A program made the position numbers and the translations under genes. This document shows positions 308 through 62,756 of a stretch of 63,755 bases of DNA, in pieces; the stretch's first letter is position 1; each line of letters starts with the position of its first letter. This stretch comes from Candidatus Zambryskiibacteriota bacterium (lineage in GTDB: Bacteria > Patescibacteriota > Minisyncoccia > Phycocordibacterales > DATDWN01): contig SIBV01000001.1 of NCBI GenBank assembly GCA_009694965.1, positions 1 through 63,755 of the forward strand, given 5' to 3'. The notes beneath the pieces were generated by a model, which was not told the DNA's origin, searched no databases, and worked only from the letters and a program-made list of their open reading frames with translations.

Positions 308-420
308 GTTGTATCGAGAGTATGGCGAGAGCAACTGGCTCAAGGACCCATCAGCAACCCTCAGAAATGAGAAGGTGCCAAATCCAGCCAAATAGCGAAA
401 GCTAAATGGAAAGATAAGAC
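308..420 (+). promoter_or_regulatory. SAM-I (S-box) riboswitch aptamer
   Basis: S-box conserved blocks in canonical order: TATCGAGAG / GGCGAGAG / ACTGGCTCAAGGACCCATCAGCAACC / GGTGCCAAATCCAGC / GAAAGATAAGAC; P1 pairs 308-315 with 413-420. Confidence 0.8.
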
Positions 421-5030: not shown

Positions 5031-8000
5031 ATGAAAGAATATGATCATTTATCTATCGAGAAGAAGTGGCAGAAAGAGTGGGAGAAGAAGAAGGTCTACA
5101 AAACGCTAAATACGTCAAAGAAAAAGAAATACTATGTATTGGATATGTTTCCTTATCCTAGCGGTGTGGGACTTCATGTAGGTCATCCAAAGGGTTATAT
5201 AGGATCGGATGTGTTCGCTCGCTTCAAGCGGATGCAGGGATTTAACGTGTTACACCCTATGGGATATGATGCTTTCGGTTTGCCTGCCGAGCAATACGCA
5301 CTCGAGCACCATATACATCCGAGAAAGGCTGTTTTGGAAAATGTGAAGGCGTTTGAGGCTCAATTAAATAAAATTGGTTTTTCGTATGATTGGGAAAGAA
5401 GGGTCAATACTACTGATCCAGAATTTTATAGATGGACACAATGGATTTTTCTTAAAATTTATAATTCTTGGTATAACCAAAAGACTAACAAGGCCGAACC
5501 TATAGAAAAACTAATAAAAATCTTTGAAAAATCTGGGAATGTTGGAGTAAACGCTGCAGGAACTTTTACATCAGAGTTTGTAGCTAAAGAATGGAATGAA
5601 AAAATAGAAAAAGAAAAACAAGATATTCTAATGAATTATCGTTTGGCGTATGAGGGCTACAGTGAGGTGAATTGGTCGCCTGTTTTAGGAACAGTTTTAG
5701 CTAATGACGAAGTGGTAGATGGTCCAACTGGTCCTGTCTCAGAGAGAGGCGGCTATCCAGTCGTAAAAAAAGAGATGAGACAATGGTTCTTGCGTATCAC
5801 AGCATATGCAGATAGATTAGCTAAGGGATTGGATACTCTCAATTGGTCAGACCACATCAAAGAAATTCAAAAAAACTGGATAGGGAAGTCTGTTGGAGCT
5901 GAAATTGATTTTAAAATCAAAGATGGTCAAAACATCAGGATTTTTACCACCAGACCAGATACTATTTTCGGTGTGACTTATTTAGTTTTGGCACCAGAAC
6001 ATCCAGCATTACTGAATTTAAAATCAAAAATTAGGAATTGGGATGCTGTTTCTAGTTACATCAACAAGACAAAATTAATAACTCCAGAAGAAAGAATGGA
6101 TTCAAAAGAAAAAACTGGTGTTATTCTCCGTGGCATCGTTGCTATAAATCCTGCAAATGGTGAAGAAATTCCAGTGTGGATTGCAGATTATGTATTAGTT
6201 AATTATGGCACCGGAGCGATCATGGCAGTACCCGCACATGATGAAAGGGATTTGGAGTTTGCTCAGAAATATATTTTACCTTTTAATGAAGTGATTATCG
6301 AAGTTTTTGGTGATATTTTAAAAGAACCAATACGTAGAGATGTTGTTAAGGCAATTATCGTGAGAAATAATAAAGTTTTATTGGTTAAAGAAAATAATGA
6401 ACAGTATTCATTACCTGGTGGTTCTTATGAGTTAGGTGAAAGTGATTTAAGTGCTCTTTCGAGAGAAATAAGAGAGGAAACTGAATATAAGAATTTTAAA
6501 ATAAAGGATTATCTTGGAAGTGTAGAAAGATTTTATAGGAAGGATATGAAAAATAATACTGGAGAGAATAGAGTTCGAAGGATTGCAGGATATCTTGTTG
6601 AAATAACCAACGAGGAGAAAGAAAAAATTCAACATGATGGTTGGATAACAGAAACTAAGTGGTTTGATATGAAAGAAGCGATTGAAGTTCTTAAAAAGAC
6701 TGATTATAATGCTGAAGCGCTTTTTATAAAAAAAATATTGGAAAATAATCATTGTTTTGTTAGTGAGGGCATTCTGGTTAATTCTGGGAAGTTCAACGGT
6801 TTTTCTTCAGAGGAAGCAAAAATTAAAATCACAAAAGAAGTGGGAGGTAAAATTGTGACAAAATATAAAATACGGGACGCAATTTTTGCACGCCAGAGAT
6901 ATTGGGGTGAACCTATCCCTCTTGTTCACACCAAGGACGGAATAATTAAGCCACTTGGAGATAAATCTCTCCCATTAAAACTTCCAGATGTGAAGTCTTA
7001 TGAACCCACTGGGACTGGGGACTCACCGCTGGCTGGTGTTAAAGAGTGGATGAAAAAAGGTTTAGAGACAAACACTATGCCTGGTTGGGCTGGATCTTCA
7101 TGGTATTACCTTGCGTACATGACGCAAGGAATTTCCAATTTCCAATTTCCAATTTTCAAAAATAATACTAAAGCCAAAAGAACCAAAGAAGCTATTCAAT
7201 ATTGGAAAAATGTAGACATGTACGTGGGTGGGCAGGAGCATGCCACAGGACATTTACTTTATTCTCGTTTTTGGCACAAAGTTTTAAAGGACTACAATTT
7301 GGTACCGACAGAAGAACCATTTCAGACTTTACGAAACCAAGGAATGATTCTCGGGGAGGATAATCGTAAAATGGGTAAGAGGTGGGGCAATGGAGTAAAC
7401 CCTGACGATGTTGTGAAATACTATGGTGCAGACACACTCCGTGTTTATGAAATGTTTATGGGACCTTTCGAAAGCTCACTACCTTGGAGCACAGATAATA
7501 TAATAGGCTCTAGGCGTTTCCTAGATAAAGTTTGGAGACTTCAAGAAAAAGTTGTTACTAAAAAAATGTCAAGGACAGTCCTTGACATTAGTACTAATAC
7601 TAAATTGGAGGCATTACTTCACAAAACTATCAAAAAAGTAGGAGATGATATAAATAACTTTGCATTTAACACGGCTGTGTCCTCAATGATGATTCTTGCA
7701 AATGAAATGGAGAAGCAGGAGGAGATAAAACAAGCACATTTTGAGATGTTTCTGAAAGTCCTCAACCCTTTTGCGCCCCACATGACCGAAGAGATTTGGA
7801 AGTTTTTGGGAAATAAGACATTGCTTGTAAATGAGAAATGGCCAAAAGCAGATCCAAAAAAGATGTTGGAATTAGAAGTGAAAATTGTAATACAAGTAAA
7901 TGGAAAGGTTCGAGCAGATTGTATGATAATTCTAAATACGCTAGAAAATGATGTAATTGAAATGGTTAAAACATTACCAGATGTAGAGAAATGGTTACTA

Positions 8001-8063
8001 GGTAAAGAAATAAAAAAAGTTATATATATTCCAAATAGATTAGTAAACTTGGTGATTTTTTGA
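5031..8063 (+). CDS. leuS: leucine--tRNA ligase with an inserted Nudix domain
   Basis: HVGHPKGY (HIGH), CP1 editing domain (TTRPDTIFGVTY), AHDERDLEFAQKY, RQRYWGEPIP, KMGKR (KMSKS-like); 1010 aa, longer than usual bacterial LeuRS. Confidence 0.95.
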   Translation: MKEYDHLSIEKKWQKEWEKKKVYKTLNTSKKKKYYVLDMFPYPSGVGLHVGHPKGYIGSDVFARFKRMQGFNVLHPMGYDAFGLPAEQYALEHHIHPRKAVLENVKAFEAQLNKIGFSYDWERRVNTTDPEFYRWTQWIFLKIYNSWYNQKTNKAEPIEKLIKIFEKSGNVGVNAAGTFTSEFVAKEWNEKIEKEKQDILMNYRLAYEGYSEVNWSPVLGTVLANDEVVDGPTGPVSERGGYPVVKKEMRQWFLRITAYADRLAKGLDTLNWSDHIKEIQKNWIGKSVGAEIDFKIKDGQNIRIFTTRPDTIFGVTYLVLAPEHPALLNLKSKIRNWDAVSSYINKTKLITPEERMDSKEKTGVILRGIVAINPANGEEIPVWIADYVLVNYGTGAIMAVPAHDERDLEFAQKYILPFNEVIIEVFGDILKEPIRRDVVKAIIVRNNKVLLVKENNEQYSLPGGSYELGESDLSALSREIREETEYKNFKIKDYLGSVERFYRKDMKNNTGENRVRRIAGYLVEITNEEKEKIQHDGWITETKWFDMKEAIEVLKKTDYNAEALFIKKILENNHCFVSEGILVNSGKFNGFSSEEAKIKITKEVGGKIVTKYKIRDAIFARQRYWGEPIPLVHTKDGIIKPLGDKSLPLKLPDVKSYEPTGTGDSPLAGVKEWMKKGLETNTMPGWAGSSWYYLAYMTQGISNFQFPIFKNNTKAKRTKEAIQYWKNVDMYVGGQEHATGHLLYSRFWHKVLKDYNLVPTEEPFQTLRNQGMILGEDNRKMGKRWGNGVNPDDVVKYYGADTLRVYEMFMGPFESSLPWSTDNIIGSRRFLDKVWRLQEKVVTKKMSRTVLDISTNTKLEALLHKTIKKVGDDINNFAFNTAVSSMMILANEMEKQEEIKQAHFEMFLKVLNPFAPHMTEEIWKFLGNKTLLVNEKWPKADPKKMLELEVKIVIQVNGKVRADCMIILNTLENDVIEMVKTLPDVEKWLLGKEIKKVIYIPNRLVNLVIF
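6330..6749 (+). other. in-frame Nudix hydrolase domain inserted in LeuRS (about aa 434-573)
   Basis: Nudix box GSYELGESDLSALSREIREETEY (nt 6420-6488) fits Gx5Ex7REUxEExGU except the final G; lies between AHDERDLEFAQKYILP and GILVNSGKFNGF, which are about 20 aa apart in E. coli LeuRS. Confidence 0.8.
7131..7158 (+). repeat. tandem heptamer repeat inside leuS coding sequence
   Basis: ATTTCCA x3 plus ATTTTCA, encoding ISNFQFPIF in a loop that is longer than in E. coli LeuRS. Confidence 0.8.
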
Positions 8064-9194: not shown

Positions 9195-9203
9195 AGAAAA
9201 TTT

Positions 9204-9281
9204 TTAATTTCTAATTTTCAATTTCTAAACAAAATACTTAATGTATCTGTTTGAAAATTAGAAATTGAAAATTAGAAATTG
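9204..9281. repeat. family G word-hairpin (AATTTCTA/GAAAATT words), copy G1
   Basis: TAATTTCTAATTTTCAATTTCTAAAC (9205-9230) is the reverse complement of GTTTGAAAATTAGAAATTGAAAATTAGAAATT (9249-9281, slightly offset). Confidence 0.85.
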
Positions 9282-10634: not shown

Positions 10635-11612
10635 ATGGAACAGGAACTTATTAAATTTAAGGATTGGGTGATATCACACAGAAAAACAGTTTGTGTTGGT
10701 GTTTTCTTGATATCAGCGCTATCTATTGTTTTATTTTTTTATAAAACTCCAAGAAATTTTCCTATAGGAGAAGTTATTGCTGTGGACAATGGTAATTCTC
10801 TGCAGGAAATTACTGACACATTATATTCAAAAAAAATAATCAGGTCACCATTTTTATTTAGAACTCATGTGATCCTTCTCGGTGGGGAAAAAGGTGTTTT
10901 AGCTGGAGATTACATATTAGACAAAAGAGAGGGTCCAGCTAGGCTTGCATATAGATTAGTAAAAGGAAAATATCATTTAGAATCTAAAAAAATTACTATT
11001 CCTGAGGGTTGGAATATTTTTCAAATAGGGGATTATTTGGAAAAAACACTTCTCAGGTTCAATAAAAAAGAATTTATGACTCTAGCGAAGGATAGTGAAG
11101 GTTATTTATTTCCTGATACATATTTCATTTCCCCGGTATCTACTCCACAAGGTGTAATAGATAGAATGAAAAAAAACTTTAATGAAAAGATGTCACTCAT
11201 CAATTTGTCTACATCAACAAGGAGTTTGAAGGATATTATTATCATGGCCTCAATACTTGAGGTAGAAGCCAGAACTACAGAAAGCCGGAAAACTATAGCT
11301 GGGATTCTGTGGAAAAGGTTGTCTATCGGCATGGCTCTCCAGGTGGATTCAACATTTCTTTATATCAACGGGAAAAATACATACGAGTTAACCTTGGAGG
11401 ACTTGAAAATAGATTCTTTATACAATACCTACAAATATCCAGGACTACCTAGAGGTCCTATTGGAAACCCAGGGTTAGATTCTATTTTGGCTGCGATAAA
11501 TCCTATAAATACCAAATACCTTTATTTTCTTTCTAGTAAAAGTGGGGGCATGTATTATGGGACAACTTTTGAACAACATAAGAGGAATAAAGAACTATAC
11601 TTAAATAAATAA
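10635..11612 (+). CDS. mltG: endolytic murein transglycosylase MltG (YceG-like)
   Basis: N-terminal TM; EGYLFPDTY, ASILEVEA, YNTYKYPGLPRGPIGNPG motifs typical of YceG/MltG. Confidence 0.85.
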   Translation: MEQELIKFKDWVISHRKTVCVGVFLISALSIVLFFYKTPRNFPIGEVIAVDNGNSLQEITDTLYSKKIIRSPFLFRTHVILLGGEKGVLAGDYILDKREGPARLAYRLVKGKYHLESKKITIPEGWNIFQIGDYLEKTLLRFNKKEFMTLAKDSEGYLFPDTYFISPVSTPQGVIDRMKKNFNEKMSLINLSTSTRSLKDIIIMASILEVEARTTESRKTIAGILWKRLSIGMALQVDSTFLYINGKNTYELTLEDLKIDSLYNTYKYPGLPRGPIGNPGLDSILAAINPINTKYLYFLSSKSGGMYYGTTFEQHKRNKELYLNK

Positions 11613-11675
11613 TCACTTTCTCGTTATATCCTTTTTGGAGTACGGGTTTTCGCTGGTGCAAAACTCCCTCACCTC

Positions 11676-11749
11676 CTTACAGGAGCAGTACACCTTTCAC
11701 ATTTTAATTATAAAATGTTCAAGGTCTTGCGAAGCTTCGCTTCTCACCT
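11676..11749 (+). repeat. family B structured repeat, copy B1
   Basis: CTTACAGGAGCAGTACACCTTTCACATTTTAATTATAAAATGTTCAAGGTCTTGCGAAGCTTCGCTTCTCACC. Confidence 0.85.
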
Positions 11750-11828
11750 CGCCCAGTCGGCTGCGGGGCCTCCAAAAAAGACATAACTTCAACGCGATTA
11801 TTTATTGAGAGTTTTTTGTGGTATAAAG

Positions 11829-19094: not shown

Positions 19095-19273
19095 TAGCTA
19101 ATTAGTAGCTAGTAGCAAGTAGCTAGGTTAAATACGAATGCTTCTTCTTACAGAATCTGTATATCTTTCGCTTTCTGACTACAGAATGCTCAAGGTCTTG
19201 CGAAGTGATAACATCACTTCTCACTCGTCTCTACACGGTCTTCCTAGCTACTATATACTAGCTACTATATACT
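19092..19273. repeat. family I word-hairpin (AGTAGCTAG words) enclosing B2
   Basis: Arm 19092-19127 (TAGTAGCTAATTAGTAGCTAGTAGCAAGTAGCTAGG) pairs with arm 19243-19273 (CCTAGCTACTATATACTAGCTACT...). Confidence 0.7.
19147..19226 (+). repeat. family B structured repeat, copy B2
   Basis: CTTACAGAATCTGTATATCTTTCGCTTTCTGACTACAGAATGCTCAAGGTCTTGCGAAGTGATAACATCACTTCTCACTC. Confidence 0.8.
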
Positions 19274-22102: not shown

Positions 22103-22324
22103 ATGCAAGATCCTAACAAAAAAGTCGCGGAAGTTTCTGCTAGAGTTACAGAGGCATTACCCAATACTTTCTTTAAGGTAAAAAGAGATGATACAGGAGA
22201 AGAGATGCTAACATATCTCTCAGGAAAAATGAGACTTCATAGGATTAGAGTTTTGATTGGAGACAGAGTTACAGTGGAGATTGAACCTTATGGCGGCAAG
22301 GGTCGCATAATAAAGCGAGTTTAG
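22103..22324 (+). CDS. infA: translation initiation factor IF-1
   Basis: 73 aa S1-like fold; ...ALPNTFFKVKRDDTGEEMLTYLSGKMRLHRIRVLIGDRV. Confidence 0.95.
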   Translation: MQDPNKKVAEVSARVTEALPNTFFKVKRDDTGEEMLTYLSGKMRLHRIRVLIGDRVTVEIEPYGGKGRIIKRV

Positions 22325-22326
22325 TT

Positions 22327-22434
22327 AAACATACGAATATACGAATAATACAAATCTACAAATGGCTACGAATAAGAAAATCACTTCGAACCCATTTGTA
22401 ACTATTCGTAACATTCGCATAATTTTTGTATCGT
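22327..22434 (+). repeat. family A word-hairpin (ACGAAT words), copy A1
   Basis: AAACATACGAATATACGAATAATACAAATCTACAAATGGCTACGAATAAG ... ATTCGTAACATTCGCATAATTTTTGTATCG. Confidence 0.8.
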
Positions 22435-22631: not shown

Positions 22632-23009
22632 ATGAGAATACTAGGAATCACATTACCAGAGGAGAAAAGAATAGAGATTGGATTAACAGTCCTCTACGGT
22701 GTTGGACGATCTAGAGCTCAAACTGTTTTGGATCAGGCAAAGGTTCCCTATGGATTGAAGCCAAAAGAAATTTCAGTTGAACAAGAGAACGCAATTCGAA
22801 AAGTTGTAGAATCTTTTAAAATTGAAGGAGATTTGAAACGAGAAACTGCAGGAAACATAAAGAGACTAAAGGATATCAAGTCATATAGAGGGTCTCGACA
22901 CTCAAAAAATCTTCCAAGCCGAGGTCAGCGAACAAAAACAAATGCTAGAACAAAGAGAGGCGCGAAGAAGACGATGGGTACGGGACGCAAGATAGCCGAT
23001 AAAAAATAA
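22632..23009 (+). CDS. rpsM: 30S ribosomal protein S13
   Basis: MRILGITLPEEKRIEIGLTVLYGVGRSRA... Confidence 0.95.
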   Translation: MRILGITLPEEKRIEIGLTVLYGVGRSRAQTVLDQAKVPYGLKPKEISVEQENAIRKVVESFKIEGDLKRETAGNIKRLKDIKSYRGSRHSKNLPSRGQRTKTNARTKRGAKKTMGTGRKIADKK

Positions 23010-23012
23010 ATT

Positions 23013-23130
23013 AAACATACGAATATGCGAATAATACAAATCAACGAATGGCTACGAATAAGAGAAAATTCAACAACCTGTATTATTCGTGGTAATTCGT
23101 ATCATTCGTACATTCGTTAATTCGTATATT
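23013..23130 (+). repeat. family A word-hairpin, copy A2
   Basis: AAACATACGAATATGCGAATAATACAAATCAACGAATGGCTACGAATAAG ... TATTATTCGTGGTAATTCGTATCATTCGTACATTCGTTAATTCGTATATT. Confidence 0.85.
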
Positions 23131-23141
23131 TAATTAATAAA

Positions 23142-24402: not shown

Positions 24403-25356
24403 ATGTCTGATTACATAATTGTATTGCCATCAAAACCAAAAATAGTCACTGAAAAAGAGTTCAGTGGTTCTTATGAAATAGACGGATTGTACCCGGGTTA
24501 CGGCCACACCTTAGGTAACTCACTCAGAAGAATTATCCTTTCGTCACTTCCGGGATCAGCAGTTACTTCTGTTAAGATCGAAGGAATTCCACATGAATTC
24601 TCAGTTATTCCTGGTGTAAAGGAGGATGCTATCACTATTCTGTTAAATTTGAAGAAGATTAGACTAAATATGGTCAGTGATGAACCTCAAGTTCTAACTC
24701 TAAAAGTAAAGGGTGTAAAGGAGGTAACGGCAGGGGACATAAAAATAACAGGAGGTATCGAGGTTTTAAACCCTGAACTAGTTATTGCAACTCTAACTGA
24801 CGCAAAAGCAGAACTTGATATGGAAATCACAGTTGAAAAGGGCCTAGGATTCGTATCAAAGGAAGTATTACAAAAAAATAGAGTTGATATCGCTCAAATT
24901 ACACTGGACGCAATCTTCACTCCTATTAGACGAGTGAGTTACGAAGTTGAAAATATGCGAGTGGGGGACAGAACAGATTTCAATAGACTAAAAATCTTTA
25001 TTGAAACAGATGGAACTATCACTCCAAAAGAGGCTCTAGAAAAATCCATAGAGACTATGATAAATCAATTAAAGGCTATTATTGGTTTCAAGGAAGAGGA
25101 CGTGTTGGTTGCACCTCAGCACAAAGCTGGTGCAGAAGACAATGTAATAGTTGATGAAGACTCACTAAAGACTCGAATCGATACTCTTAACTTCTCAGCT
25201 CGAACAATGAATGCGCTTTCTGCAGCAAACATTCGCACAGTTGGTGGCCTTGCTAGAAAGAAGGAGAAGGATATATTGGATATTGAAGGAATGGGAGCAA
25301 AAGGACTTTCTGAAATCAAGGAAGTGCTAGCTACATTTGGAATAACGTTGAAATAA
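24403..25356 (+). CDS. rpoA: DNA-directed RNA polymerase subunit alpha
   Basis: N-terminal domain ...GYGHTLGNSLRRILLSSLPG-like; C-terminal domain ...LNFSARTMNALSAANIRTVGGL. Confidence 0.95.
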   Translation: MSDYIIVLPSKPKIVTEKEFSGSYEIDGLYPGYGHTLGNSLRRIILSSLPGSAVTSVKIEGIPHEFSVIPGVKEDAITILLNLKKIRLNMVSDEPQVLTLKVKGVKEVTAGDIKITGGIEVLNPELVIATLTDAKAELDMEITVEKGLGFVSKEVLQKNRVDIAQITLDAIFTPIRRVSYEVENMRVGDRTDFNRLKIFIETDGTITPKEALEKSIETMINQLKAIIGFKEEDVLVAPQHKAGAEDNVIVDEDSLKTRIDTLNFSARTMNALSAANIRTVGGLARKKEKDILDIEGMGAKGLSEIKEVLATFGITLK

Positions 25357-25362
25357 GTAGAT

Positions 25363-25479
25363 AAACATACGAATATGCAAATAACACCAATAATACGAAT
25401 AGCTACGAATAAAATTCAGAAGTCTGTGGTATTATTCGCATTCATTCATACATTCGCATAATTCGTTAATTCGTATATT
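25363..25479 (+). repeat. family A word-hairpin, copy A3
   Basis: AAACATACGAATATGCAAATAACACCAATAATACGAATAGCTACGAATAAA ... TATTATTCGCATTCATTCATACATTCGCATAATTCGTTAATTCGTATATT. Confidence 0.85.
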
Positions 25480-25485
25480 AATTTC

Positions 25486-25833
25486 ATGAATCACCACAAA
25501 ACTACAAGAAAATTCGGACGAGTAAAGAAAGTTAGAGACGGACTGATGAAGTCCTTGGCTCTTTCACTTGTTGTAAGAGGAAAAATTAAGACTACTGATG
25601 CAAAAGCTCGAGAACTACGACCTATGGTAGAAAAGATGATTACACAAGGTAGACTTGGAACTATTGCTTCACGACGAGCACTTGTTTCAAAAGTAGGAGT
25701 TATCGGTGCTGACAAGATTTTCAAGGATTTAGCACCAAAGTATGTCGGAAGAGCAGGTGGATACACTAGAATTACTAAGTTGCCAGCACGAGTCTCAGAT
25801 GGTTCACTCATGGCTGTTATCGAATTCGTTTAG
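25486..25833 (+). CDS. rplQ: 50S ribosomal protein L17
   Basis: MNHHKTTRKFGRVKKVRDGLMKSLALSLV...GGYTRITKL. Confidence 0.95.
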   Translation: MNHHKTTRKFGRVKKVRDGLMKSLALSLVVRGKIKTTDAKARELRPMVEKMITQGRLGTIASRRALVSKVGVIGADKIFKDLAPKYVGRAGGYTRITKLPARVSDGSLMAVIEFV

Positions 25834-26811: not shown

Positions 26812-26908
26812 GGGTGAGAAATGATGGGCATCACTTCGCAAGACCTTGCCTGATTTTTTCAGAATGAAATGAATGAAAAAGTCGACAAAATGTACTGTTC
26901 CTGTAAGG
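26812..26908 (-). repeat. family B structured repeat, copy B3 (inverted, with enlarged first hairpin)
   Basis: Reverse complement reads CCTTACAGGAACAGTACATTTTGTCGAC...CTGAAAAAATCAGGCAAGGTCTTGCGAAGTGATGCCCATCATTTCTCACCCC. Confidence 0.75.
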
Positions 26909-27009
26909 AAGAGAGAATTTGCTAGCGACGGCGAATAAAATATCCGTGACAAACGATAGAAAATCTCTTCCCAGAAGCGAAGCGTGCCACATTGGAGTAA
27001 ACTTTAATC

Positions 27010-27226: not shown

Positions 27227-27296
27227 GCATTCCTCCCTAATCAACAATAACAGATGTGTTTGTCAACAATTTTGAACCTCTTAATTTTTATGTTAA

Positions 27297-27431
27297 ACCC
27301 GCACACCAACTTTACTATAGTTTTTATACTCTGACTTACTGTAATTTCTTTATGTAAATTATGGCAAAAATGTTATAATAGTGATAATATCTTCTTGAAA
27401 AACAGAGTGATAGTAAAGTTGGTGTGCGGGT
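27297..27431 (+). mobile_element. family C MITE-like palindromic element, copy C1 (upstream of grpE)
   Basis: ACCCGCACACCAACTTTACTAT... and ...ATAGTAAAGTTGGTGTGCGGGT terminal inverted repeats; 135 nt. Confidence 0.8.
27371..27379 (+). promoter_or_regulatory. extended -10 box (TGTTATAAT) inside C1 facing grpE
   Basis: TGnTATAAT match about 66 nt upstream of the grpE ATG. Confidence 0.4.
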
Positions 27432-27444
27432 AAAATAGCTAAAT

Positions 27445-30789: not shown

Positions 30790-30844
30790 AAGTTTATATA
30801 ATTTACCAGGACGCGTATAAATCACAGGTGTGATTTTACTATCT

Positions 30845-30924
30845 CTTACAGAGACTGTACACTTTTCACATTTTGATTACAAAACGCCCAAAGTCTTACG
30901 AAGTGATAAAATCACTTCTCACTC
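30845..30924 (+). repeat. family B structured repeat, copy B4
   Basis: CTTACAGAGACTGTACACTTTTCACATTTTGATTACAAAACGCCCAAAGTCTTACGAAGTGATAAAATCACTTCTCACTC. Confidence 0.85.
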
Positions 30925-31050
30925 GGAAATCAAGAAGACAATCTCATAGACACATAGCCTTCTCGCAAACTCGTTTCGCTCAAACAAATTAACACATATA
31001 GCACCTCTCGTCAAGTGTTATAAAATTGAAAAATCCTTATAATGAGGTTA

Positions 31051-31100
31051 ATTATTCGTAGCCATTCGTAGATTCGCATCATTTGCATATTCGTATATTT
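31051..31100 (+). repeat. family A half-element (3' arm only), copy A5
   Basis: ATTATTCGTAGCCATTCGTAGATTCGCATCATTTGCATATTCGTATATTT abutting the dnaJ ATG. Confidence 0.7.
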
Positions 31101-32177
31101 ATGTCTAAAGACTATTACAACTTGCTCGGGGTGGACAAAAAAGCCTCAAAAGACGACATCAAGAAGGCTTTTAGAACACTTGCTCATAAATACCATCCAG
31201 ACAAAAAAACTGGCGATGATGCTAGGTTCAAAGAGATTAACGAGGCTTATTCAATCCTTTCTGATGATCAGAAGCGCGCTCAATACGATCAGTTCGGACA
31301 AGGGGGTCAACAAGGCTTCGGAGGTCAACAAAGTGGAGGCTTTGGCGATTTTGATTTTTCACAATTCACTCAAGGTGGAACTGGAAACGGTTTTGAGTTT
31401 GATTTCGGAGACATCTTCGGTGATGTGTTTGGTGGAGGTAGACGATCACAAGCAAAAAGAGGTAGGGATATCTCTATTGACCAAGAGCTTTCGTTTGAAG
31501 AATCTATTTTTGGAATCGAACGAACTGTTCTTCTAAACAAAGTTTCTAAATGTGATGTATGTTCTGGAAGTGGAACGGAAAAAGGTAGCGAACTCATAAC
31601 ATGTTCAATATGTAACGGAAAGGGAAATCTTCGCGAAGTAAAGCGAACTTTCTTCGGCCAATTTGAAACAAACACCACTTGCGAAACTTGTCAGGGTGCT
31701 GGAAAAGTTCCAAAGATAAAATGTTCTGCGTGCTATGGAAAAGGTATTCTAAAAAAGGAATCGGAAATAAAAGTGAAGATTCCTGCTGGTATTGAAAACG
31801 GGGAGATGATTCGGCTCAGTGGAGGAGGGGAGGCGATTGTCGGTGGAACAACAGGGGATTTGTATATAAAAATATATGTGAAAAAGCACTCTATCTTCAG
31901 AAAGGATGGAAACAATCTAATAATGGACTTGGGAGTCAAATTGTCCGACGCAATTTTGGGCGGAGAAGTTAATCTCAAAACCCTGGACGGTGATATCAAA
32001 GTCAGAGTTCCAGAAGGAGTAAACCATGGCGAAATTCTAAGAATAAAAGGCAAAGGAGTACCGGTTGATAAAAATCATAGAGGAGATATTCTGATAAAAA
32101 TAAATCTTGCAGTTCCAAAAAAACTTTCCAAAGAAGCGAGAAAGGCAATTGAAATTCTAAAACAAGAAGGATTCTAA
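31101..32177 (+). CDS. dnaJ: molecular chaperone DnaJ
   Basis: MSKDYYNLLGV...HPDK J-domain, G/F-rich region, four CxxCxGxG zinc-finger repeats; ATG 31101 preferred over track start 31083. Confidence 0.95.
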   Translation: MSKDYYNLLGVDKKASKDDIKKAFRTLAHKYHPDKKTGDDARFKEINEAYSILSDDQKRAQYDQFGQGGQQGFGGQQSGGFGDFDFSQFTQGGTGNGFEFDFGDIFGDVFGGGRRSQAKRGRDISIDQELSFEESIFGIERTVLLNKVSKCDVCSGSGTEKGSELITCSICNGKGNLREVKRTFFGQFETNTTCETCQGAGKVPKIKCSACYGKGILKKESEIKVKIPAGIENGEMIRLSGGGEAIVGGTTGDLYIKIYVKKHSIFRKDGNNLIMDLGVKLSDAILGGEVNLKTLDGDIKVRVPEGVNHGEILRIKGKGVPVDKNHRGDILIKINLAVPKKLSKEARKAIEILKQEGF

Positions 32178-35164: not shown

Positions 35165-35244
35165 GGGTGAGGGATTATGGGATAATCCCGCAAGACCTTG
35201 AATGTTTTGTAGCCAAAATGTGAAAGGTGTACAGTTTCTGTAAG
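35165..35244 (-). repeat. family B structured repeat, copy B5 (inverted)
   Basis: Reverse complement: CTTACAGAAACTGTACACCTTTCACATTTTGGCTACAAAACATTCAAGGTCTTGCGGGATTATCCCATAATCCCTCACCC. Confidence 0.85.
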
Positions 35245-35402
35245 AAAGTCCCCTACCCTAGCTTTACCATTATCATTGATTTTTATAGGTGTATATGTAT
35301 AATACTTACAAATGATTTCTAACGGATTAATCACTACCTGGTCAAGTTTCGTCTAGACTCAATGAGTGTTGAGTTATTCTGTGTGAAGTAAGGGAGTAAA
35401 TA

Positions 35403-41078: not shown

Positions 41079-41086
41079 AAATATAT

Positions 41087-41166
41087 ATACGAATATGCGA
41101 ATAATACTAATCTACGAATGGCTACGAATAAGAAAGAATGTTATTTATCTATTCGCATATTCGCAT
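41087..41166 (+). repeat. family A word-hairpin, copy A6
   Basis: ATACGAATATGCGAATAATACTAATCTACGAATGGCTACGAATAAG ... TATTCGCATATTCGCATG. Confidence 0.8.
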
Positions 41167-46216: not shown

Positions 46217-46805
46217 TGGCGTCTCTTGTGTCCTCTATCACGTCTTTTTCCTCTTCTGTCTCTTCTATTACTTCCAATTGCTTCTGGACTTCCTTGTACT
46301 CAGGTAAATCTGAAATGTTGCCGAGCCCCAGAAACCTCAACGTTTCAGTTGTAATACTATACACTATGACCCTCTCTAGAGTCTCACTTCCTTTTTTTTC
46401 AACTAAACCACGTAAAAGCAGATTTCTCAGTGCGTATTGAGAGTTTACTCCTCTTATGTACTCTATTTCCTTTTTACTTACTGGACCTTTGTATGCCACA
46501 ATAGCCAGTGTTTCTATTCCAGCTCTTCCTAAGTCTCTTTCTCTCTCCTCTTTTATAATCTTTTCTATGAGACCTCCGAGCTCTGGAGACGTTACGAGAG
46601 ACACCTCATCGTTATGTCTAACAATTTTTATACCTCTATTTGAAAGTGAAGCCTCTATTTCGTTAATAGCATCCACGATATCTTCCCTTGGAACTTCAAG
46701 AGTTTTTACTAGAAATTTAATCTCCACAGGCTCAGCCAAGTAGAAAAGAATCGCCTCCACCCGCACACTAAGATTGCTATTGTTTTTTATATTCTGCTCA
46801 AGCAT
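46206..46805 (-). CDS. scpB: segregation and condensation protein B
   Basis: VEAILFYLAEPVEIKFL..., two winged-helix repeats; first about 15 codons are encoded by repeat C2, so a GTG start near 46763 is possible. Confidence 0.85.
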   Translation of the reverse strand: MLEQNIKNNSNLSVRVEAILFYLAEPVEIKFLVKTLEVPREDIVDAINEIEASLSNRGIKIVRHNDEVSLVTSPELGGLIEKIIKEERERDLGRAGIETLAIVAYKGPVSKKEIEYIRGVNSQYALRNLLLRGLVEKKGSETLERVIVYSITTETLRFLGLGNISDLPEYKEVQKQLEVIEETEEEKDVIEDTRDANGD

Positions 46806-46894
46806 AAAGATTTAAGTAAATTTTATTGAAAATGTTTTACTATGACTGATTTTATTTTGAAAAAACAGAATGATAGCAACCTTAGTGTGCGGGT
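46759..46894 (+). mobile_element. family C MITE-like palindromic element, copy C2 (spans the scpB start)
   Basis: ACCCGCACACTAAGATTGCTATTG... and ...AATGATAGCAACCTTAGTGTGCGGGT; 136 nt. Confidence 0.8.
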
Positions 46895-47706: not shown

Positions 47707-49152
47707 TTAACTACTTTTCTTTATGTTTATCCCCAATTCTAAAAGCTGCATTTCTGAAATTTCAGACGGCGAATCCATCATAAGGTCCTTTCCTTCTCCA
47801 GTTTTAGCAAAAGGAATAACTTCACGAATATTCGGCTCATTTTGTAAAAGCATAATCAATCTATCTAGTCCCCATGCGATTCCTCCGTGAGGTGGAGTAC
47901 CAAGTGAAAATGCTGCCATCATGTGTCCAAAGTTTTTTTGGATTCCCTCCAAACTATGTCCCATAATCTCGAATACTTTTTCCAAGGCTTTAGGATTATG
48001 ATTTCTAATACTTCCTCCCCCAATTTCCATTCCGTTTAAGGCCACATCGTATTGTGAAGTAAGAATTCCTCCAATATTTTCCTTGTTCATTAACCATTCT
48101 AGGTGTTCAGGCTTTGGCCTTGAAAAAGGATTGTGCGTAAATGTCCATGCTCCAGTATCTGTTTTTTCAAAGAATGGAAAATCAATAACCCAGCAAAAAG
48201 CCAAAAGATTTGGGTCTTCTTTGTTTTCTCTAACATCAGGCTTATCGGAATTATACTTTTCCATTGCTTCCTGATAAGTAAATCTAGGAAAAGGAATTTG
48301 TTGAATTTTCTTTTCTGGGTATAGTTTTGTAACCAAATCTATAAGCAACTTTTCGTTCAACTCTATAACATCTTCTCTTTTCACAAAACTCATTTCAAGG
48401 TCTAACTGAGTAAATTCTGGTTGTCTATCCCCTCTTGTATCTTCATCTCGCATACATCGAGCAATTTGGAAATACTTTTCCACCCCTCCTGTCATTAAAA
48501 GTTGTTTGTATTGCTGCGGGGATTGCGGAAGCGCATAAAACTTTCCAGGATAAAGTCTAGCAGGAACTACGTAGTCTCTTGAGCCTTCAGGGGTGGATTT
48601 TGTAAGTATAGGTGTCTCTACCTCGATAAAACTTTCTGTATCAAGAAAATCTCTAATAAATTTTATTACCTTGTGTCGATTGCGAATATTTTTCTGCATT
48701 CTGTCTGAACGCAAATCAACATACCTATATTTCAATCTTACTTCTTCATTTATTTCTCTTGTATCTCCTCCAATATCAAAAGGGATTGTGTATGATTTAT
48801 TCAAAACTTCAACATGCAAAATCTCAAGTTCAATATCTCCGTTTAAAACTCCAGCTTTAACATTTCTCTCCGGTCTTTTGTTTACTAAACCTTTAACTGA
48901 TAATACCCATTCAGTTCTAACGTCCTTTACTTGTTCAATCGCTTCAGGATGATTCGGTAAAACAACACATTGAACCTTGCCAGTCATATCTCGCATATCC
49001 ATAAAAACCATCTTTCCTTGGTCTCGACGGACATCCACCCAGCCAGATATCGTAATTTCTTCGCCAATATGGCCGCTCAAATCCTTTATATACACCCGCA
49101 CACCAATTTTGCCGTTGCTTTTACTGTCCTGTTTTGAAATAATTTCAGTCAT
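47707..49152 (-). CDS. aspS: aspartate--tRNA ligase, bacterial-type core without the GAD insertion
   Basis: LPQSPQQYKQLLM, CMRDEDTRGDRQPEFTQLDLEMSF, GGGSIR; DKPDVRENKEDPNLLAFCWVIDFPFFE where bacterial enzymes carry the GAD domain; first about 20 codons lie in repeat C3. Confidence 0.92.
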   Translation of the reverse strand: MTEIISKQDSKSNGKIGVRVYIKDLSGHIGEEITISGWVDVRRDQGKMVFMDMRDMTGKVQCVVLPNHPEAIEQVKDVRTEWVLSVKGLVNKRPERNVKAGVLNGDIELEILHVEVLNKSYTIPFDIGGDTREINEEVRLKYRYVDLRSDRMQKNIRNRHKVIKFIRDFLDTESFIEVETPILTKSTPEGSRDYVVPARLYPGKFYALPQSPQQYKQLLMTGGVEKYFQIARCMRDEDTRGDRQPEFTQLDLEMSFVKREDVIELNEKLLIDLVTKLYPEKKIQQIPFPRFTYQEAMEKYNSDKPDVRENKEDPNLLAFCWVIDFPFFEKTDTGAWTFTHNPFSRPKPEHLEWLMNKENIGGILTSQYDVALNGMEIGGGSIRNHNPKALEKVFEIMGHSLEGIQKNFGHMMAAFSLGTPPHGGIAWGLDRLIMLLQNEPNIREVIPFAKTGEGKDLMMDSPSEISEMQLLELGINIKKSS

Positions 49153-55851: not shown

Positions 55852-55925
55852 GAATTTCTAATTTCTAATTTCTAATTTCTAAACTGGGTTCTGTTTTAAA
55901 ATTGAAAATTGAAAATTGAAAATTC
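55852..55925. repeat. family G word-hairpin, copy G3 (two heptamer arrays)
   Basis: (AATTTCT)x4 at 55852-55884 and (AAAATTG)x4 at 55893-55925; arms pair with one mismatch per heptad. Confidence 0.8.
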
Positions 55926-56855: not shown

Positions 56856-56863
56856 ATATTCAG

Positions 56864-56959
56864 AATATACGAATATACGAATTATGCAAATCAACGAATG
56901 GCTACGAATGAATTCATTCGTAGCCATTCGTAAAAGTATTTCATTCGTTAATTCGTATA
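56864..56959 (+). repeat. family A word-hairpin, copy A7 (contains a perfect 38-nt palindrome 56894-56931)
   Basis: ACGAATGGCTACGAATGAATTCATTCGTAGCCATTCGT flanked by ATACGAATATACGAATTATGC and TTCATTCGTTAATTCGTATAT. Confidence 0.9.
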
Positions 56960-58186
56960 TTACTTACTGAGAATTTCCAGCGCTTTTAACAACTGAGTAT
57001 CATTCCCCTTCTTAAACTCCTCCTCATCCAACTTCACAACTTCGTTTGGAGTTAGACCTTGATGAGAAATAGATATTCCGTTTGGTGTAAGCCACTTTGC
57101 GATAGTAACTTTGAGACTAGTTCCCTGTCCGATGTCCATAAGCTCCTGTACTGAACCTTTTCCAAATGACTGAACTCCAACTAGTTTTGCTACACCATGA
57201 TCATGAAGTGCTCCCGCAAGAATCTCTGAAGCACTAGCGGATCCGCCGTCAATCAATACCACAAGTTTAAGATTATCGTTGAATACATTGTATCCCTTGC
57301 TTCGGAAAATCTGTTCATCTTTCTCGTCTTTGAAATCCTCTTTTACAACTACTTTTCCTGCTGGCAAAAACCATGAAGCCATATCTATCGCTGCATCTAG
57401 ATATCCCCCTGGATTTCCTCTAACATCTATTATTAGTTTTACTTTTCCAGACTCAACGAACTCTCGGAGGGATTCCCTGAACAAATTTGCTGATATTGCT
57501 GAAAAGTTATAGAGACGAATTATAAAGACATCACCCTTCACCTCGGTATCCACGGTTGGCATGTTTATGACATCTCTAATAACTGTAATTTCTAGAGGTT
57601 CTTTGTTGCCCTCTCTAACAACTATGAATTTAACTGGAGTACCTTTTTTCCCACGAATTATTTTGATTGCCTCTTCTGTACTAAGTCCTGCCGTAGCAGT
57701 ATCATCAATTTTCAAAATCTTATCTAGAGGTTTCATACCGGCTTTATATGCAGGAGTACCCTTGAGTGGCGCTATCACCGTCAAAATTCCTTCTTTTGTA
57801 CCGACTTCCATGCCAACACCTTCGAAGTTGCCACTTATTTCCTCGCTAAAAATCTTTGCCTCAACAGGAGGAAGGAAAATGGTGTATGGGTCTCCTAGGG
57901 ACATCACCATACCCTCGATAGCTCCATAAACTCTAGCCTGGTCGTCTATCTTCACAGTAGTTGTGCTGTTTGTAGTGACATACTTGTCGTTTATCACATT
58001 CCAAGCCTTCCAAAATAAAGCAAAATCTACTTCACTTGGAGAACCTTCTGTTTTGTTGATTAGCGCTGTTACTTTGTTTATTTCAGAAACATTTTGTTTA
58101 CCAAAATAATAACCAGTAAAAAAAATAAGTCCTACGACAAGTAGACTCGAGAAAACGTAAGCTCTGTATTTGAAAAAATCATTCAT
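56960..58186 (-). CDS. ctpA: carboxy-terminal processing peptidase (S41) with PDZ domain
   Basis: PDZ region GMKPLDKILKIDD; RGNPGGYLD and S41 catalytic region; ATG 58186 (MNDFFKY...) preferred, TTG 58225 also possible. Confidence 0.85.
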   Translation of the reverse strand: MNDFFKYRAYVFSSLLVVGLIFFTGYYFGKQNVSEINKVTALINKTEGSPSEVDFALFWKAWNVINDKYVTTNSTTTVKIDDQARVYGAIEGMVMSLGDPYTIFLPPVEAKIFSEEISGNFEGVGMEVGTKEGILTVIAPLKGTPAYKAGMKPLDKILKIDDTATAGLSTEEAIKIIRGKKGTPVKFIVVREGNKEPLEITVIRDVINMPTVDTEVKGDVFIIRLYNFSAISANLFRESLREFVESGKVKLIIDVRGNPGGYLDAAIDMASWFLPAGKVVVKEDFKDEKDEQIFRSKGYNVFNDNLKLVVLIDGGSASASEILAGALHDHGVAKLVGVQSFGKGSVQELMDIGQGTSLKVTIAKWLTPNGISISHQGLTPNEVVKLDEEEFKKGNDTQLLKALEILSK

Positions 58187-59906: not shown

Positions 59907-61301
59907 ATGCCAACAAAAACTATTATCACTCAAACGGTGACAAATCGTATGAGGATACCCCCACAGAATTTGGAATCAGAAATGGCAGTTCTGGGTTCCA
60001 TAATGCTCAGGCCTGAAGCACTCTACGATATAGTTGATGTCGTAAAGGCGGATTCTTTCTATTCAGAAAAGCATCGCGTTATTTATGACGCAATGATGGA
60101 ACTTTTTGTAAAAAAATCTCCTATTGATTTACTATCCGTTTCTTCTAAACTGAAAGAGAAGGGTTGGCTTGATCAAATAGGTGGTAACACTTACCTTACT
60201 GAGATAGTAAACGTGGTTCCATCTTCTGCCAATATCGCTTACTATGCCGAAATAGTTCAGAAAAAACATATGATGAGACGCCTTATCGAAGCCTCTGACC
60301 ATATTTCTCAAATCGGTTATGATGAAACCAAAGAACTTGAAGAGATGCTCGATGGTGCAGAAAAAAAACTTTTTGATGTTACGAACTTCAACACCGCTCA
60401 TAAATTTGTTGCAATCAAGGAAGAACTAGCTGAAGCATGGGAAAGACTTGACCGACTTCACACAGATGGCGTAGGTATGCGTGGAGTACCATCCGGCTTT
60501 CATGATATTGATAATAAACTTTCTGGGTTCCAAAAGTCTGACCTGATTATTCTTGCAGCCAGACCATCTATGGGCAAGACTTCGCTAGCGCTGGACATCG
60601 CTCGCCAAGCTGCGGTGAACCACAACATACCTGTTGGTATTTTTTCACTAGAAATGAGCAGTCAGCAACTAGTAGATAGAATGCTTGCAGCACAGGCAAA
60701 CGTCGATGCGTGGAAACTACGAACGGGAAAACTTTCTAGACAGGACGATTTTGACGCTATCCGTAGTTCACTCGACAAACTGAGTAATGCACCTATTTAT
60801 ATTGACGACCAACCTGGAAACAATATTTTAAAAATGAAATCGATTGCTAGAAGATTGAAAAGTGAAAAAGGATTGGGGCTTATTATCGTGGATTATCTCC
60901 AGCTTATGGTTCCAACTCAGACAAAGAGCGATAACATGGTTCAGCAAATAACTGAAATCTCAAAGTCGTTGAAAAATCTTGCTCGAGAATTAGATGTTCC
61001 TGTTCTTGCTCTCTCTCAGTTAAACCGCGCGGTGGAAGCTCGTGGAGGTCGCCCTCGTCTTTCTGACCTACGAGATTCTGGAGCTATTGAGCAAGATGCT
61101 GATGTCGTTATGTTTATTCACACCGAAGATAAATATAAGGATGAAGCAGAACAAACAAACATATATGAAATATTGATTGAAAAACACCGAAATGGAGAAA
61201 CCGGAAAAGTAGAACTATTTTTTAACAAAAAGAAAGCGACTTTCCAATCAATGGACAAATCCCAATATGGTGGAGCGGAGAAAGAATTCTCAGACTTCTA
61301 A
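59907..61301 (+). CDS. dnaB: replicative DNA helicase DnaB
   Basis: PPQNLESEMAVLGSIML N-terminus; ARPSMGKTS Walker A; IIVDYLQLM; SQLNRAVE. Confidence 0.95.
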   Translation: MPTKTIITQTVTNRMRIPPQNLESEMAVLGSIMLRPEALYDIVDVVKADSFYSEKHRVIYDAMMELFVKKSPIDLLSVSSKLKEKGWLDQIGGNTYLTEIVNVVPSSANIAYYAEIVQKKHMMRRLIEASDHISQIGYDETKELEEMLDGAEKKLFDVTNFNTAHKFVAIKEELAEAWERLDRLHTDGVGMRGVPSGFHDIDNKLSGFQKSDLIILAARPSMGKTSLALDIARQAAVNHNIPVGIFSLEMSSQQLVDRMLAAQANVDAWKLRTGKLSRQDDFDAIRSSLDKLSNAPIYIDDQPGNNILKMKSIARRLKSEKGLGLIIVDYLQLMVPTQTKSDNMVQQITEISKSLKNLARELDVPVLALSQLNRAVEARGGRPRLSDLRDSGAIEQDADVVMFIHTEDKYKDEAEQTNIYEILIEKHRNGETGKVELFFNKKKATFQSMDKSQYGGAEKEFSDF

Positions 61302-61415
61302 TAATACAAATATGCAAACAAACGAATAATACGAATGGCTACGAATAAGATAATAAATTATTGTATTATTCGTAGCCATTCGTAGATTTGTTATAATTCG
61401 AATATTCGTATATTT
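61302..61415 (+). repeat. family A word-hairpin, copy A8 (19-bp perfect stem 61330-61348/61366-61384)
   Basis: TACGAATGGCTACGAATAA pairs with TTATTCGTAGCCATTCGTA; outer arms ATACAAATATGCAAACAAACGAAT / ATTCGAATATTCGTATATTT. Confidence 0.9.
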
Positions 61416-61420
61416 ATTTT

Positions 61421-62503: not shown

Positions 62504-62534
62504 AATTTTTAGAACTTATAAATTCAGCGAACTC

Positions 62535-62607
62535 CTTACAGGAGCAGTACACCTTTTGCATTTTGATTACAAAACGCTCAAGGTCTTGCGAAACTCCGTT
62601 TCTCACC
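62535..62607 (+). repeat. family B structured repeat, copy B6
   Basis: CTTACAGGAGCAGTACACCTTTTGCATTTTGATTACAAAACGCTCAAGGTCTTGCGAAACTCCGTTTCTCACC. Confidence 0.85.
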
Positions 62608-62756
62608 TTTGTCGCAGGCTCCGTTTGCTCCTGCAGAGTAGGTCTACTACACTTTAGTCGCAATACTCACCTGCTTCGCGGATTTCATCTGAATTTTGAA
62701 GTTCTAGTATATTACAAAATATGGCTATAAATTGCAAGTAATCGATTTAATAAAAG

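Follow-up and report, generated by a model that had tools for sequence, protein, structure and literature searches.

A dispersed three-hairpin element of Paceibacteria genomes, possibly a structured RNA module that spreads at the DNA level

What are the six short structured repeats that lie between the genes of a 63,755-nucleotide (nt) stretch from a Candidatus Zambryskiibacteriota bacterium, and do they act as RNA or as DNA? The stretch, hereafter the window, comprises positions 1 to 63,755 of contig SIBV01000001.1 (assembly GCA_009694965.1). An original prediction, made from its letters without database searches, had described a six-copy structured element that might be either a small RNA family or a DNA hairpin recognized in trans; our analysis narrowed this choice and did not settle it. 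The element proved to be multicopy in at least 100 genomes of Parcubacteria/Paceibacteria (candidate phyla radiation), and with a probability of roughly 40% we read it as a structured RNA module that spreads at the DNA level in the manner of REP, BOX or ERIC repeats.

A covariance model derived from 118 copies was run unfiltered on both strands of the whole window. It returned exactly six copies, at the positions and on the strands originally predicted, with scores of 70-89 bits (E 1e-15 to 1e-19), while the best match to a non-member in the same run reached 12.6 bits. CTTACAGNNNCNGTA occurs 6 times in the window compared with 0.6 expected from shuffles, and CAAGGTCTTGCG is present in five exact occurrences and, with 2 mismatches, in a sixth copy. 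The element is 80-105 nt long and consists of three adjacent hairpins. The orientation of the original prediction and of the covariance model is referred to as the CTTACAG strand and its complement as the GUGAG strand. Domain-supported genes flank all six copies, which are listed below with the strand inferred to be folded.

11673..11749, copy 1, short form; folded strand -, CTTACAG strand +; 87.2 bits; between an mltG-like gene (YceG) and mnmA
19144..19226, copy 2, short form; folded strand -, CTTACAG strand +; 80.1 bits; between alaS and a hypothetical gene
26812..26910, copy 3, long-P3 form; folded strand +, CTTACAG strand -; 70.4 bits; between rpsI and grpE
30842..30924, copy 4, short form; folded strand -, CTTACAG strand +; 89.0 bits; in the dnaK-dnaJ spacer
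35165..35247, copy 5, short form; folded strand +, CTTACAG strand -; 89.2 bits; between dinB and a small open reading frame (ORF)
62532..62608, copy 6, short form; folded strand -, CTTACAG strand +; 85.5 bits; between the convergent recR and rmuC

Alignments of the six window copies and of the 118 copies gave a common architecture, in which P1 is followed by P2 enclosing P3 and then by P4, with conserved linkers and a CTCAC end. In copy 1 the parts are arranged as follows.

11673-11685 (+), P1
11686-11691 (+), linker
11692-11696 with 11721-11725 (+), P2
11699-11718 (+), P3
11726-11730 (+), linker CTTGC
11731-11743 (+), P4
11743-11747 (+), CTCAC

P1 is a 5' hairpin of the form nnnCT-TAC-AGnnn, in which covariation of the three outer pairs is shown by 51, 45 and 34 double changes. 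The P2 helix, ACCTT/AAGGT, encloses P3, the first of two hairpins originally predicted, which is short in five window copies and long, with 20-40 extra nt, in the copy at 26812. P4, the second predicted hairpin, is composed of one G-C pair and 4-8 variable pairs, and its loop accommodates insertions of 80-90 nt (loci L094 and L007 of the collection described below). Conserved sequence is found in the linkers CWGTMY and CTTGC and in the tail YCTCAC. Both predicted hairpins are real and all their listed variants correct, while the P1 hairpin and the P2 helix had been overlooked; among the single-stranded blocks said to be shared, GTACAC was exact in only four of the six copies and CTCAAGGTCTTGCG in only two of the six.

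The claim that stems change while pairing is kept is well borne out by the alignment. For the P1+P2+P4 structure, standard pairs were found in 97.7% of 1753 cells compared with 79.9% after column shuffling, and double changes in 322 cells where 83 were expected, a value that none of 500 shuffles reached. Shifting the 3' partner one to three columns reduced pairing to 57% of cells or less. Divergent copies replace P2 entirely (AGGTT/AACCT, ACTCATTG/CAATGAGT and ACTTGCCC/GGGCAAGT) and retain CTTACAG, TCTTGCG and CTCAC; these copies were found by the model only and are free of the constraint of the search pattern. Three further helices were considered and set aside. RNAalifold suggested a GUA/UGC helix, which is not real, since GTC variants occur without compensation. 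An alternative hairpin TACAG-nnn-CTGTA, favoured by RNAfold in two window copies, competes with the covarying P1, and a general closing helix from the flanks to CTCAC was seen in a subset of copies only.

The strand that folds was deduced from the center of the element. In 51 distinct short-form segments evaluated with an identical bracket string, standard pairs in P2-P3 accounted for 90.5% on the CTTACAG strand and 96.2% on the GUGAG strand, with 6 and 44 G:U cells, respectively. According to RNAfold the GUGAG strand is the more stable in 92 of 118 copies (mean 2.7 kcal/mol). An uninterrupted 8-bp P3 helix is formed exclusively on the GUGAG strand in four of the five short-form window copies, and in P3 of copy 5 two A:C mismatches on the CTTACAG strand are G:U pairs on the complement. 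Because of this G:U asymmetry and the folding energies, the strand under selection for folding is most likely the complement of the orientation originally predicted, and may be modeled as 5'-GUGAG-P4'-CGCAAG-P2'/P3'-GUACWG-P1' (loop CUGUAAG)-3'. Mutation bias does not explain the asymmetry, since the copies are randomly oriented with respect to replication and transcription. In P1 and P4, by comparison, both G:T (4 cells) and A:C (7 cells) are nearly absent among 1023 cells. The argument for strand selection holds equally for RNA and for single-stranded DNA, G:T being the most tolerated mismatch in DNA too.

In order to follow the element beyond the window, one genome per species (GTDB representatives) was scanned, which gave at least 117 loci; locus counts in the following rest on the matches listed. 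Among these, nearly all labels are Parcubacteria/Paceibacteria metagenome-assembled genomes (MAGs), including Nomura-, Kaiser-, Zambryski-, Taylor- and Lloydbacteria, 'Paceibacterota' and 'Minisyncoccia', and some are third-party annotation assemblies generically labeled Saccharibacteria. Four loci (L043, L066, L074 and L071) are binned as Acidimicrobiales, Nitrospira or Azotimanducaceae MAGs; their contigs are probably of Paceibacteria origin and mis-binned. Viral contigs contained no match to the element. Copies from differently named candidate phyla reach up to 89% identity, as between window copy 2 and L023. Around 100 ascertained copies, the covariance model found 119 copies in 703 kb, or about one additional copy per 35 kb, so that the one copy per 10.6 kb of the window is unusually dense, as had been suspected. 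The window itself holds housekeeping genes only, at ~37% G+C; its DnaK is 72% identical to that of L113, a Paceibacteria MAG, and a search for its gene arrangement in other contigs returned the window's own arrangement alone.

The element matched no known RNA family, in line with the original prediction. At the gathering threshold, the 4227 models of Rfam 15 gave a single hit in the window, the SAM riboswitch at 308-420, and with permissive settings the two strands of copy 1 gave only chance-level matches (E of at least 0.34). When 24 related loci were compared with Rfam, matches to rRNA, tRNA, 5S and group I intron models were obtained and none to the element. No description of such an element was found in full-text searches of the literature; the TIGR-Tas and gLM2 papers were considered and are unrelated to it.

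Several copies reveal the limits of the unit that is duplicated. On one contig, L047 and L075, which are separated by 24 kb, share an 80-nt block that is 100% identical between diverged flanks, with sharp edges at the P1 5' arm (TCCC-CTTACAG) and at CTCACT. Since the identical block starts with the P1 5' arm, both P1 arms are part of the unit. For 23 of 29 copies the closest relative lies in another genome, and old paralogous subtypes are therefore common to several genomes. One subfamily shares a longer unit of ~230 nt (adjacent hairpin with T-run, core and conserved 75-nt tail); its members, window copy 30845 (30795-30995), L024 and L075, are at loci that are not orthologous. The dnaK-dnaJ spacer of L113 contains an orthologous copy of window copy 4, and ~15% of the copies carry the optional extension CTCAC-CCGCCTCG-hairpin-CTCC(G). 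Past the CTCAC end of copy 3, ~85 nt are homologous to the corresponding flank of the copy in L070, and this shared flank stops at a bidirectional terminator-like hairpin immediately 3' of rpsI. Head-to-tail tandems, in which CTCAC is directly followed by CTTACAG, were found in L036, L097, L038, L043 and L054.

Neither terminal inverted repeats nor target-site duplications accompany the element. The longest match between the 5'-end consensus and the reverse complement of the 3'-end consensus is 3 nt, and direct repeats of 3-8 nt at the boundaries were not above those of permuted flanks (for k=5, 20 compared with 12.6 on average and at most 23 after permutation). For lack of both features, a miniature inverted-repeat transposable element (MITE) derived from an insertion sequence with a DDE transposase, one of the roles originally suggested, is rejected.

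Copy 1 lies inside the loop of a long hairpin made by its own flanks, and copy 2 is enclosed by a flank stem.

11604..11640, left inverted-repeat arm of copy 1; 37 nt, 81% complementary to the right arm; flank duplex -38.6
11770..11806, right inverted-repeat arm of copy 1; 37 nt
19118-19127 (AGTAGCTAGG) with 19243-19252 (CCTAGCTACT), enclosing flank stem of copy 2; flank duplex -45.7

Exact flank-to-flank stems of at least 7 nt were counted 11 times compared with 3.3 expected, and 12 of 109 copies had flanks that pair at -36 kcal/mol or lower, compared with 1.6 for permuted partners. In L011, the element interrupts a terminator-like stem with an A-run and a T-run.

The window has no tRNA genes. 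Elsewhere, a tRNA gene is found no more than 100 nt away from 17 of 112 copies, where random intergenic placement predicts 7.3. In the raw ARAGORN calls, the CTTACAG strand of tRNA-adjacent copies is antisense to the tRNA in 24 cases and sense in 4. When the dubious tRNA calls of L105 and L114 were removed, the GUGAG strand, which is the strand favored by the folding analysis, was co-oriented with the tRNA by 22 to 4 (p = 5e-4). Directly upstream of GUGAG, a duplicated tRNA leader with a 5' fragment is found in L099, L079, L098, L001, L018, L096 and L034. Many of the tRNA-adjacent copies are chimeras, made up as follows.

L001, L018 and L096: tRNA-Asn 1-22, element, tRNA-Asn 25-48; 60-70 nt upstream of the intact gene
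L034: tRNA-Phe
L098: tRNA-Pro 1-35
L099: three tandem 'aaatacatAGCGGGG' units, with the element in the first
L079: tRNA-Tyr, three units
L003: other end of a partial element, joined to the T-loop of tRNA-Lys

The junctions occur at 3-6-nt microhomologies between GGR/GTGAG (complement of CTCACYCC) and GGTAGAG/GGGGTG of the D- and anticodon loops. As sequence upstream of the mature tRNA is included and the length of the duplication varies, the chimeras are DNA-level rearrangements. In L112, a partial second 5S gene is joined to the CTCAC end in a relative orientation opposite to that of the tRNA chimeras. Copies were also observed inside or beside rRNA operons (L112, 872-1169; L008, 3450-3892; L007, 1467-4527), and a group I intron was recognized by Rfam (73 bits) in the 16S gene of L007. 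An origin of the element from tRNA was rejected: the P1 loop is anticodon-like on both strands (CU-UAC-AG and CU-GUA-AG) and no further tRNA similarity was found, local alignments to 73 tRNAs of related loci scoring at most 11, barring one ARAGORN miscall of the element.

With respect to protein genes, the copies are all intergenic and independent of the orientation of their neighbors, as predicted. Between co-directional genes the CTTACAG strand is sense in 28 copies and antisense in 20, convergent contexts outnumber divergent ones by 14 to 6, and many copies lie 50-130 nt past a stop codon. T5 and A5 runs peak 10-20 nt past the P1 end, and no U-run was found 3' of the module's own hairpins. 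The prediction had suggested looking for a co-occurring protein gene. Across the at least 117 loci no linked gene family was seen, the largest homologous cluster of immediate neighbors comprising 3 of 206 proteins, and the proteins recurring in whole loci are of housekeeping type (ABC transporter, EF-G, RF1/2, FtsW, GatA and Pif1). In agreement with the prediction, the domain scan found no transposase, Cas, TnpB or IscB in the window, and its ORFs likewise gave no HUH or recombinase domain, seven ORFs being without a Pfam match; the protein clusters that recur in the 117 annotated loci also yielded none of the HUH, transposase and recombinase domains. GC skew on the element strand is positive in 45 loci and negative in 40, indicating no replication-strand bias. 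The mixed orientation and diverse neighbors do not fit a cis-regulatory leader or riboswitch of a defined gene class, and an independent small RNA gene with a sigma-70 promoter and intrinsic terminator was rejected for want of a positional signal on either strand, less firmly so for the subfamily with the conserved 75-nt tail and adjacent hairpin.

Conservation of linkers and loops across deep lineages, while the stems covary, is the first reason for reading the element as an RNA module; the second is that the fold is strand-specific, and the third that captured tRNA leaders recur directly upstream. In its behavior the element resembles REP, BOX and ERIC repeats, and in its pattern of conservation a functional small RNA. 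Once transcribed, the module would act as a structured RNA domain, with transcription coming from read-through or from captured fragments of tRNA promoters and leaders, and the purine-rich linkers and UGUA-containing loops would form the surface read by a putative conserved host factor. New copies would arise by DNA-level copying at microhomologies or by gene conversion, not by cut-and-paste transposition, and would be placed within intergenic hairpins and at the edges of tRNA and 5S genes. BOX, RUP, ERIC/IRU and Correia (NEMIS) elements, which are small structured repeats that are co-transcribed and fold as RNA, are similar in being ~100 nt long, intergenic and modular, with a stable fold and tens to hundreds of copies; the modules are the A, B and C parts in BOX, and optional additional hairpins with variable P3 and P4 in the present element. 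Unlike our element, which has neither terminal inverted repeats nor target duplications and a much wider range, most of these elements carry such repeats, duplicate TA or another target, and are restricted to one genus or family.

A number of observations weigh against the RNA-module reading. The near-absence of G:U in P1 and P4 is unusual for RNA and typical of DNA palindromes. Given the random orientation relative to protein genes, many copies would need a promoter of their own, and no promoter- or terminator-like motif was found at a fixed distance on either strand. Relative to the rRNA, the 5S-adjacent copies of L112 and L008 face the opposite way, so the co-orientation with tRNAs may reflect junction microhomology and not co-transcription. 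Finally, CTTACAG and CAARGTCTTRCG look invariant among the 118 aligned copies in part because the search pattern demanded them.

Some of these points lead to the best-surviving alternative, a purely DNA-level selfish element, whose single-stranded hairpins would be read or nicked, for example after CTCAC, by a putative trans-encoded HUH enzyme (RAYT or IS200/IS605 TnpA-like) or tyrosine recombinase. We regard this as possible, if on balance unlikely. The almost purely Watson-Crick stems of P1 and P4, the lack of terminal repeats and target duplications, and the random orientation without a fixed promoter, together with the convergent excess, all speak for it. So do the foreign tRNA and 5S fragments, which always abut the CTCAC end, the tandems joined at that same end to CTTACAG, and the identical 80-nt copies at two loci of one genome; the excess of long flanking inverted repeats agrees with an element that inserts into hairpin loops, and the strand asymmetry is compatible with single-stranded DNA. 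Against it stands the lack of skew bias, which argues against insertion of the lagging-strand-dependent IS200/IS605 type, as does the failure to find any HUH, transposase or recombinase domain in the window or the recurrent clusters. The identity across phyla and the conserved unpaired nucleotides, moreover, go far beyond what REP or MITE families display, and the element has neither a GTAG-type head nor a single-palindrome architecture.

The likeness to the REP/BIME and RAYT (TnpA-REP) systems of Enterobacteria and Pseudomonas is nevertheless considerable: both are short, extragenic, multicopy and sometimes clustered or in tandem, with covarying near-perfect Watson-Crick stems, free orientation, a preference for gene 3' ends and no terminal repeats or target duplications. 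REPs, however, are single imperfect palindromes of 20-40 nt with a conserved tetranucleotide head of the GTAG type and specific to a species or genus, whereas the element has three hairpins with linkers over 80-105 nt, occurs in many Parcubacteria lineages and shows the strand-asymmetric G:U signature. No RAYT (Y1 HUH) gene, which REPs typically flank, was found among the window ORFs or the ten largest protein clusters of the 117 loci. The ends of IS200/IS605 elements and of their ORF-less derivatives, the palindrome-associated transposable elements, including the right-end omega-RNA region, share with the element subterminal hairpins, the lack of terminal repeats and target duplications, and short motifs adjacent to hairpins (CTTAC and CTCAC here, TTAC and TCAA in IS608). 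The element differs in that no TnpA or TnpB was found in the window, no replication-strand bias is seen and no Rfam IS605-orfB or omega-RNA model matches; unlike in IS200/IS605, the sequence 5' of CTTAC is not target DNA, because the copied unit includes both P1 arms. No autonomous relative, in which these ends would flank tnpA or tnpB, turned up in the window or the loci, where no collection-wide split-end search was made. Integron attC sites are comparable in that structure is conserved over sequence, one strand folds better and the site is read as folded single-stranded DNA. An attC site is, however, a single bulged hairpin with R''/R' core sites (RYYYAAC/GTTRRRY), located at cassette 3' ends in one orientation and served by IntI, none of which applies to the element; attC was rejected for its different architecture, the missing GTTRRRY core site and the housekeeping neighbors of the element.

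A stronger version of the RNA-module reading would make the element a Paceibacteria-specific RNA class, expressed from the GUGAG strand, often by captured tRNA promoters and leaders, with a host role as a ribonucleoprotein or catalyst and multiplying by tRNA/5S recombination. This we consider unlikely. Dicistronic units of a tRNA and a C/D box small RNA occur in reduced archaeal genomes and in plants. Like such tRNA-linked genes, the element is a multicopy structured RNA candidate, co-oriented with tRNAs at a distance of 4-250 nt and apparently using tRNA promoters or leaders. It differs in having no C/D or H/ACA boxes and no single-stranded guides, and most of its copies are not beside tRNAs. 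Guide ribonucleoproteins of this sort are not known from bacteria.

More doubtful still is a role as cis-acting transcript punctuation of the REP/BIME or ERIC kind, in which the element would be a processing site, stabilizer or terminator-associated structure in operons or 3' untranslated regions. The intergenic position shortly past stop codons, the many copies beside or inside terminator-like hairpins, the favored convergent regions and the peak of T5/A5 runs beyond P1 would all suit such a function, but the two orientations are nearly equally frequent, the fold is optimized on one strand only and no hairpin of the module is followed by a U-run. A self-cleaving ribozyme, or a retro-mobile RNA that recombines with tRNA and 5S by template switching of a reverse transcriptase, is very improbable: conserved junction nucleotides between variable stems, the scattered multicopy occurrence, the chimeras at microhomologies and the absence of a match to any known ribozyme model agree with it, while the tRNA sequence from before the mature 5' end and the opposite orientations of tRNA and 5S chimeras point to DNA-level events, no reverse transcriptase was found near any copy among neighbor proteins and locus clusters, and the cleavage is hypothetical. 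The known self-cleaving classes (hammerhead, twister, pistol, hatchet and related models) gave no Rfam match, and resemblances to Shine-Dalgarno/anti-Shine-Dalgarno, CsrA, GNRA, MazF and TGT motifs were regarded as numerology and not relied on.

In addition to the element, the window and the related loci contain further features, which are listed here.

308-420 (+), SAM-I riboswitch aptamer; 56.6 bits, above the Rfam gathering score
768-1868, YchF-type GTPase; next domain-supported ORF after the aptamer and an unusual partner, although a small unlisted ORF may intervene
5031-8063 (+), leucyl-tRNA synthetase ORF of 1010 amino acids; NUDIX domain (residues 436-558) inserted after the editing domain
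23082-23139, 25431-25488, 31051-31105, 56913-56970 and 61365-61423 (+), arrays of ATTCGTA-like heptamers ending in TATATT(T)A
22323-22383, 23009-23069, 25351-25391, 41079-41139, 56859-56919 and 61296-61356, inverse copies of the heptamer arrays
27284-27318 with 27410-27444, inverted repeat of a third family, just upstream of grpE
46759-46794 with 46859-46894, and 49093-49131, third-family inverted repeats
7130-7161, 9199-9280 and 55853-55924, intergenic AATTTCT/AATTGAA tandem-like repeats in both orientations

The heptamer arrays form a second repeat family of the window. In at least four cases (rpsK, rplQ, dnaJ and recR) an array is directed at the gene and stops at the start codon or a few nt from it, which looks like a common promoter or operator architecture with leaderless or near-leaderless mRNAs. 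Members of the third family are inverted repeats of ~35 nt based on ACCCGCACAC...GTGTGCGGGT and lie 64-91 nt apart; the one upstream of grpE could be an operator or a structured leader. Cumulative GC skew has its maximum at ~35 kb, where genes switch from + to - (~35-36 kb) and from where they return to + at ~58.3 kb; the switch at ~35 kb could be a replication terminus-like site or an inversion boundary, and the element copy at 35165 is located there. In other loci (L040, L067, L083 and L019), further repeats are found beside copies of the element, among them GGGAAGGGGTCGG(GAAACGG) directly before GTGAG, and TTTCCCGTGGAGGAAGG. As such repeats recur beside the copies, several small repeat families appear to cluster in common intergenic 'junkyards'. 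A recurrent protein of ~225 amino acids, with an HTH_23 match and a GLYWGEG motif resembling that of LAGLIDADG homing endonucleases, was observed in L005 (2703-3404), L071 (1069-2450), L081 (621-1283) and L012 (7638-8000), and is not consistently adjacent to the element.

Small structured dispersed repeats as such are already known (REP/BIME, BOX, ERIC and Correia), and this element is a previously undescribed one, the novelty of which lies in its three-hairpin architecture, phylogenetic breadth, strand-asymmetric fold and tRNA/5S chimeras. The genomes of the candidate phyla radiation are tiny and streamlined, with almost no experimentally characterized non-coding elements. The conservation of linkers and loops implies a conserved reader, either an RNA-binding factor or a DNA-processing enzyme, on which the element offers a handle for phylogenetic profiling; it may also be used as a marker of Paceibacteria contigs. 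It furthermore offers a naturally occurring case of tRNA and 5S loci being remodeled by small repeats through partial duplication. If expressed as RNA, the element would be among the most widespread unassigned RNA families of the lineage, and if it were an RNA class of its own, it would represent a domesticated, RNA-level 'gene parasite' of the stable-RNA machinery in minimal genomes.

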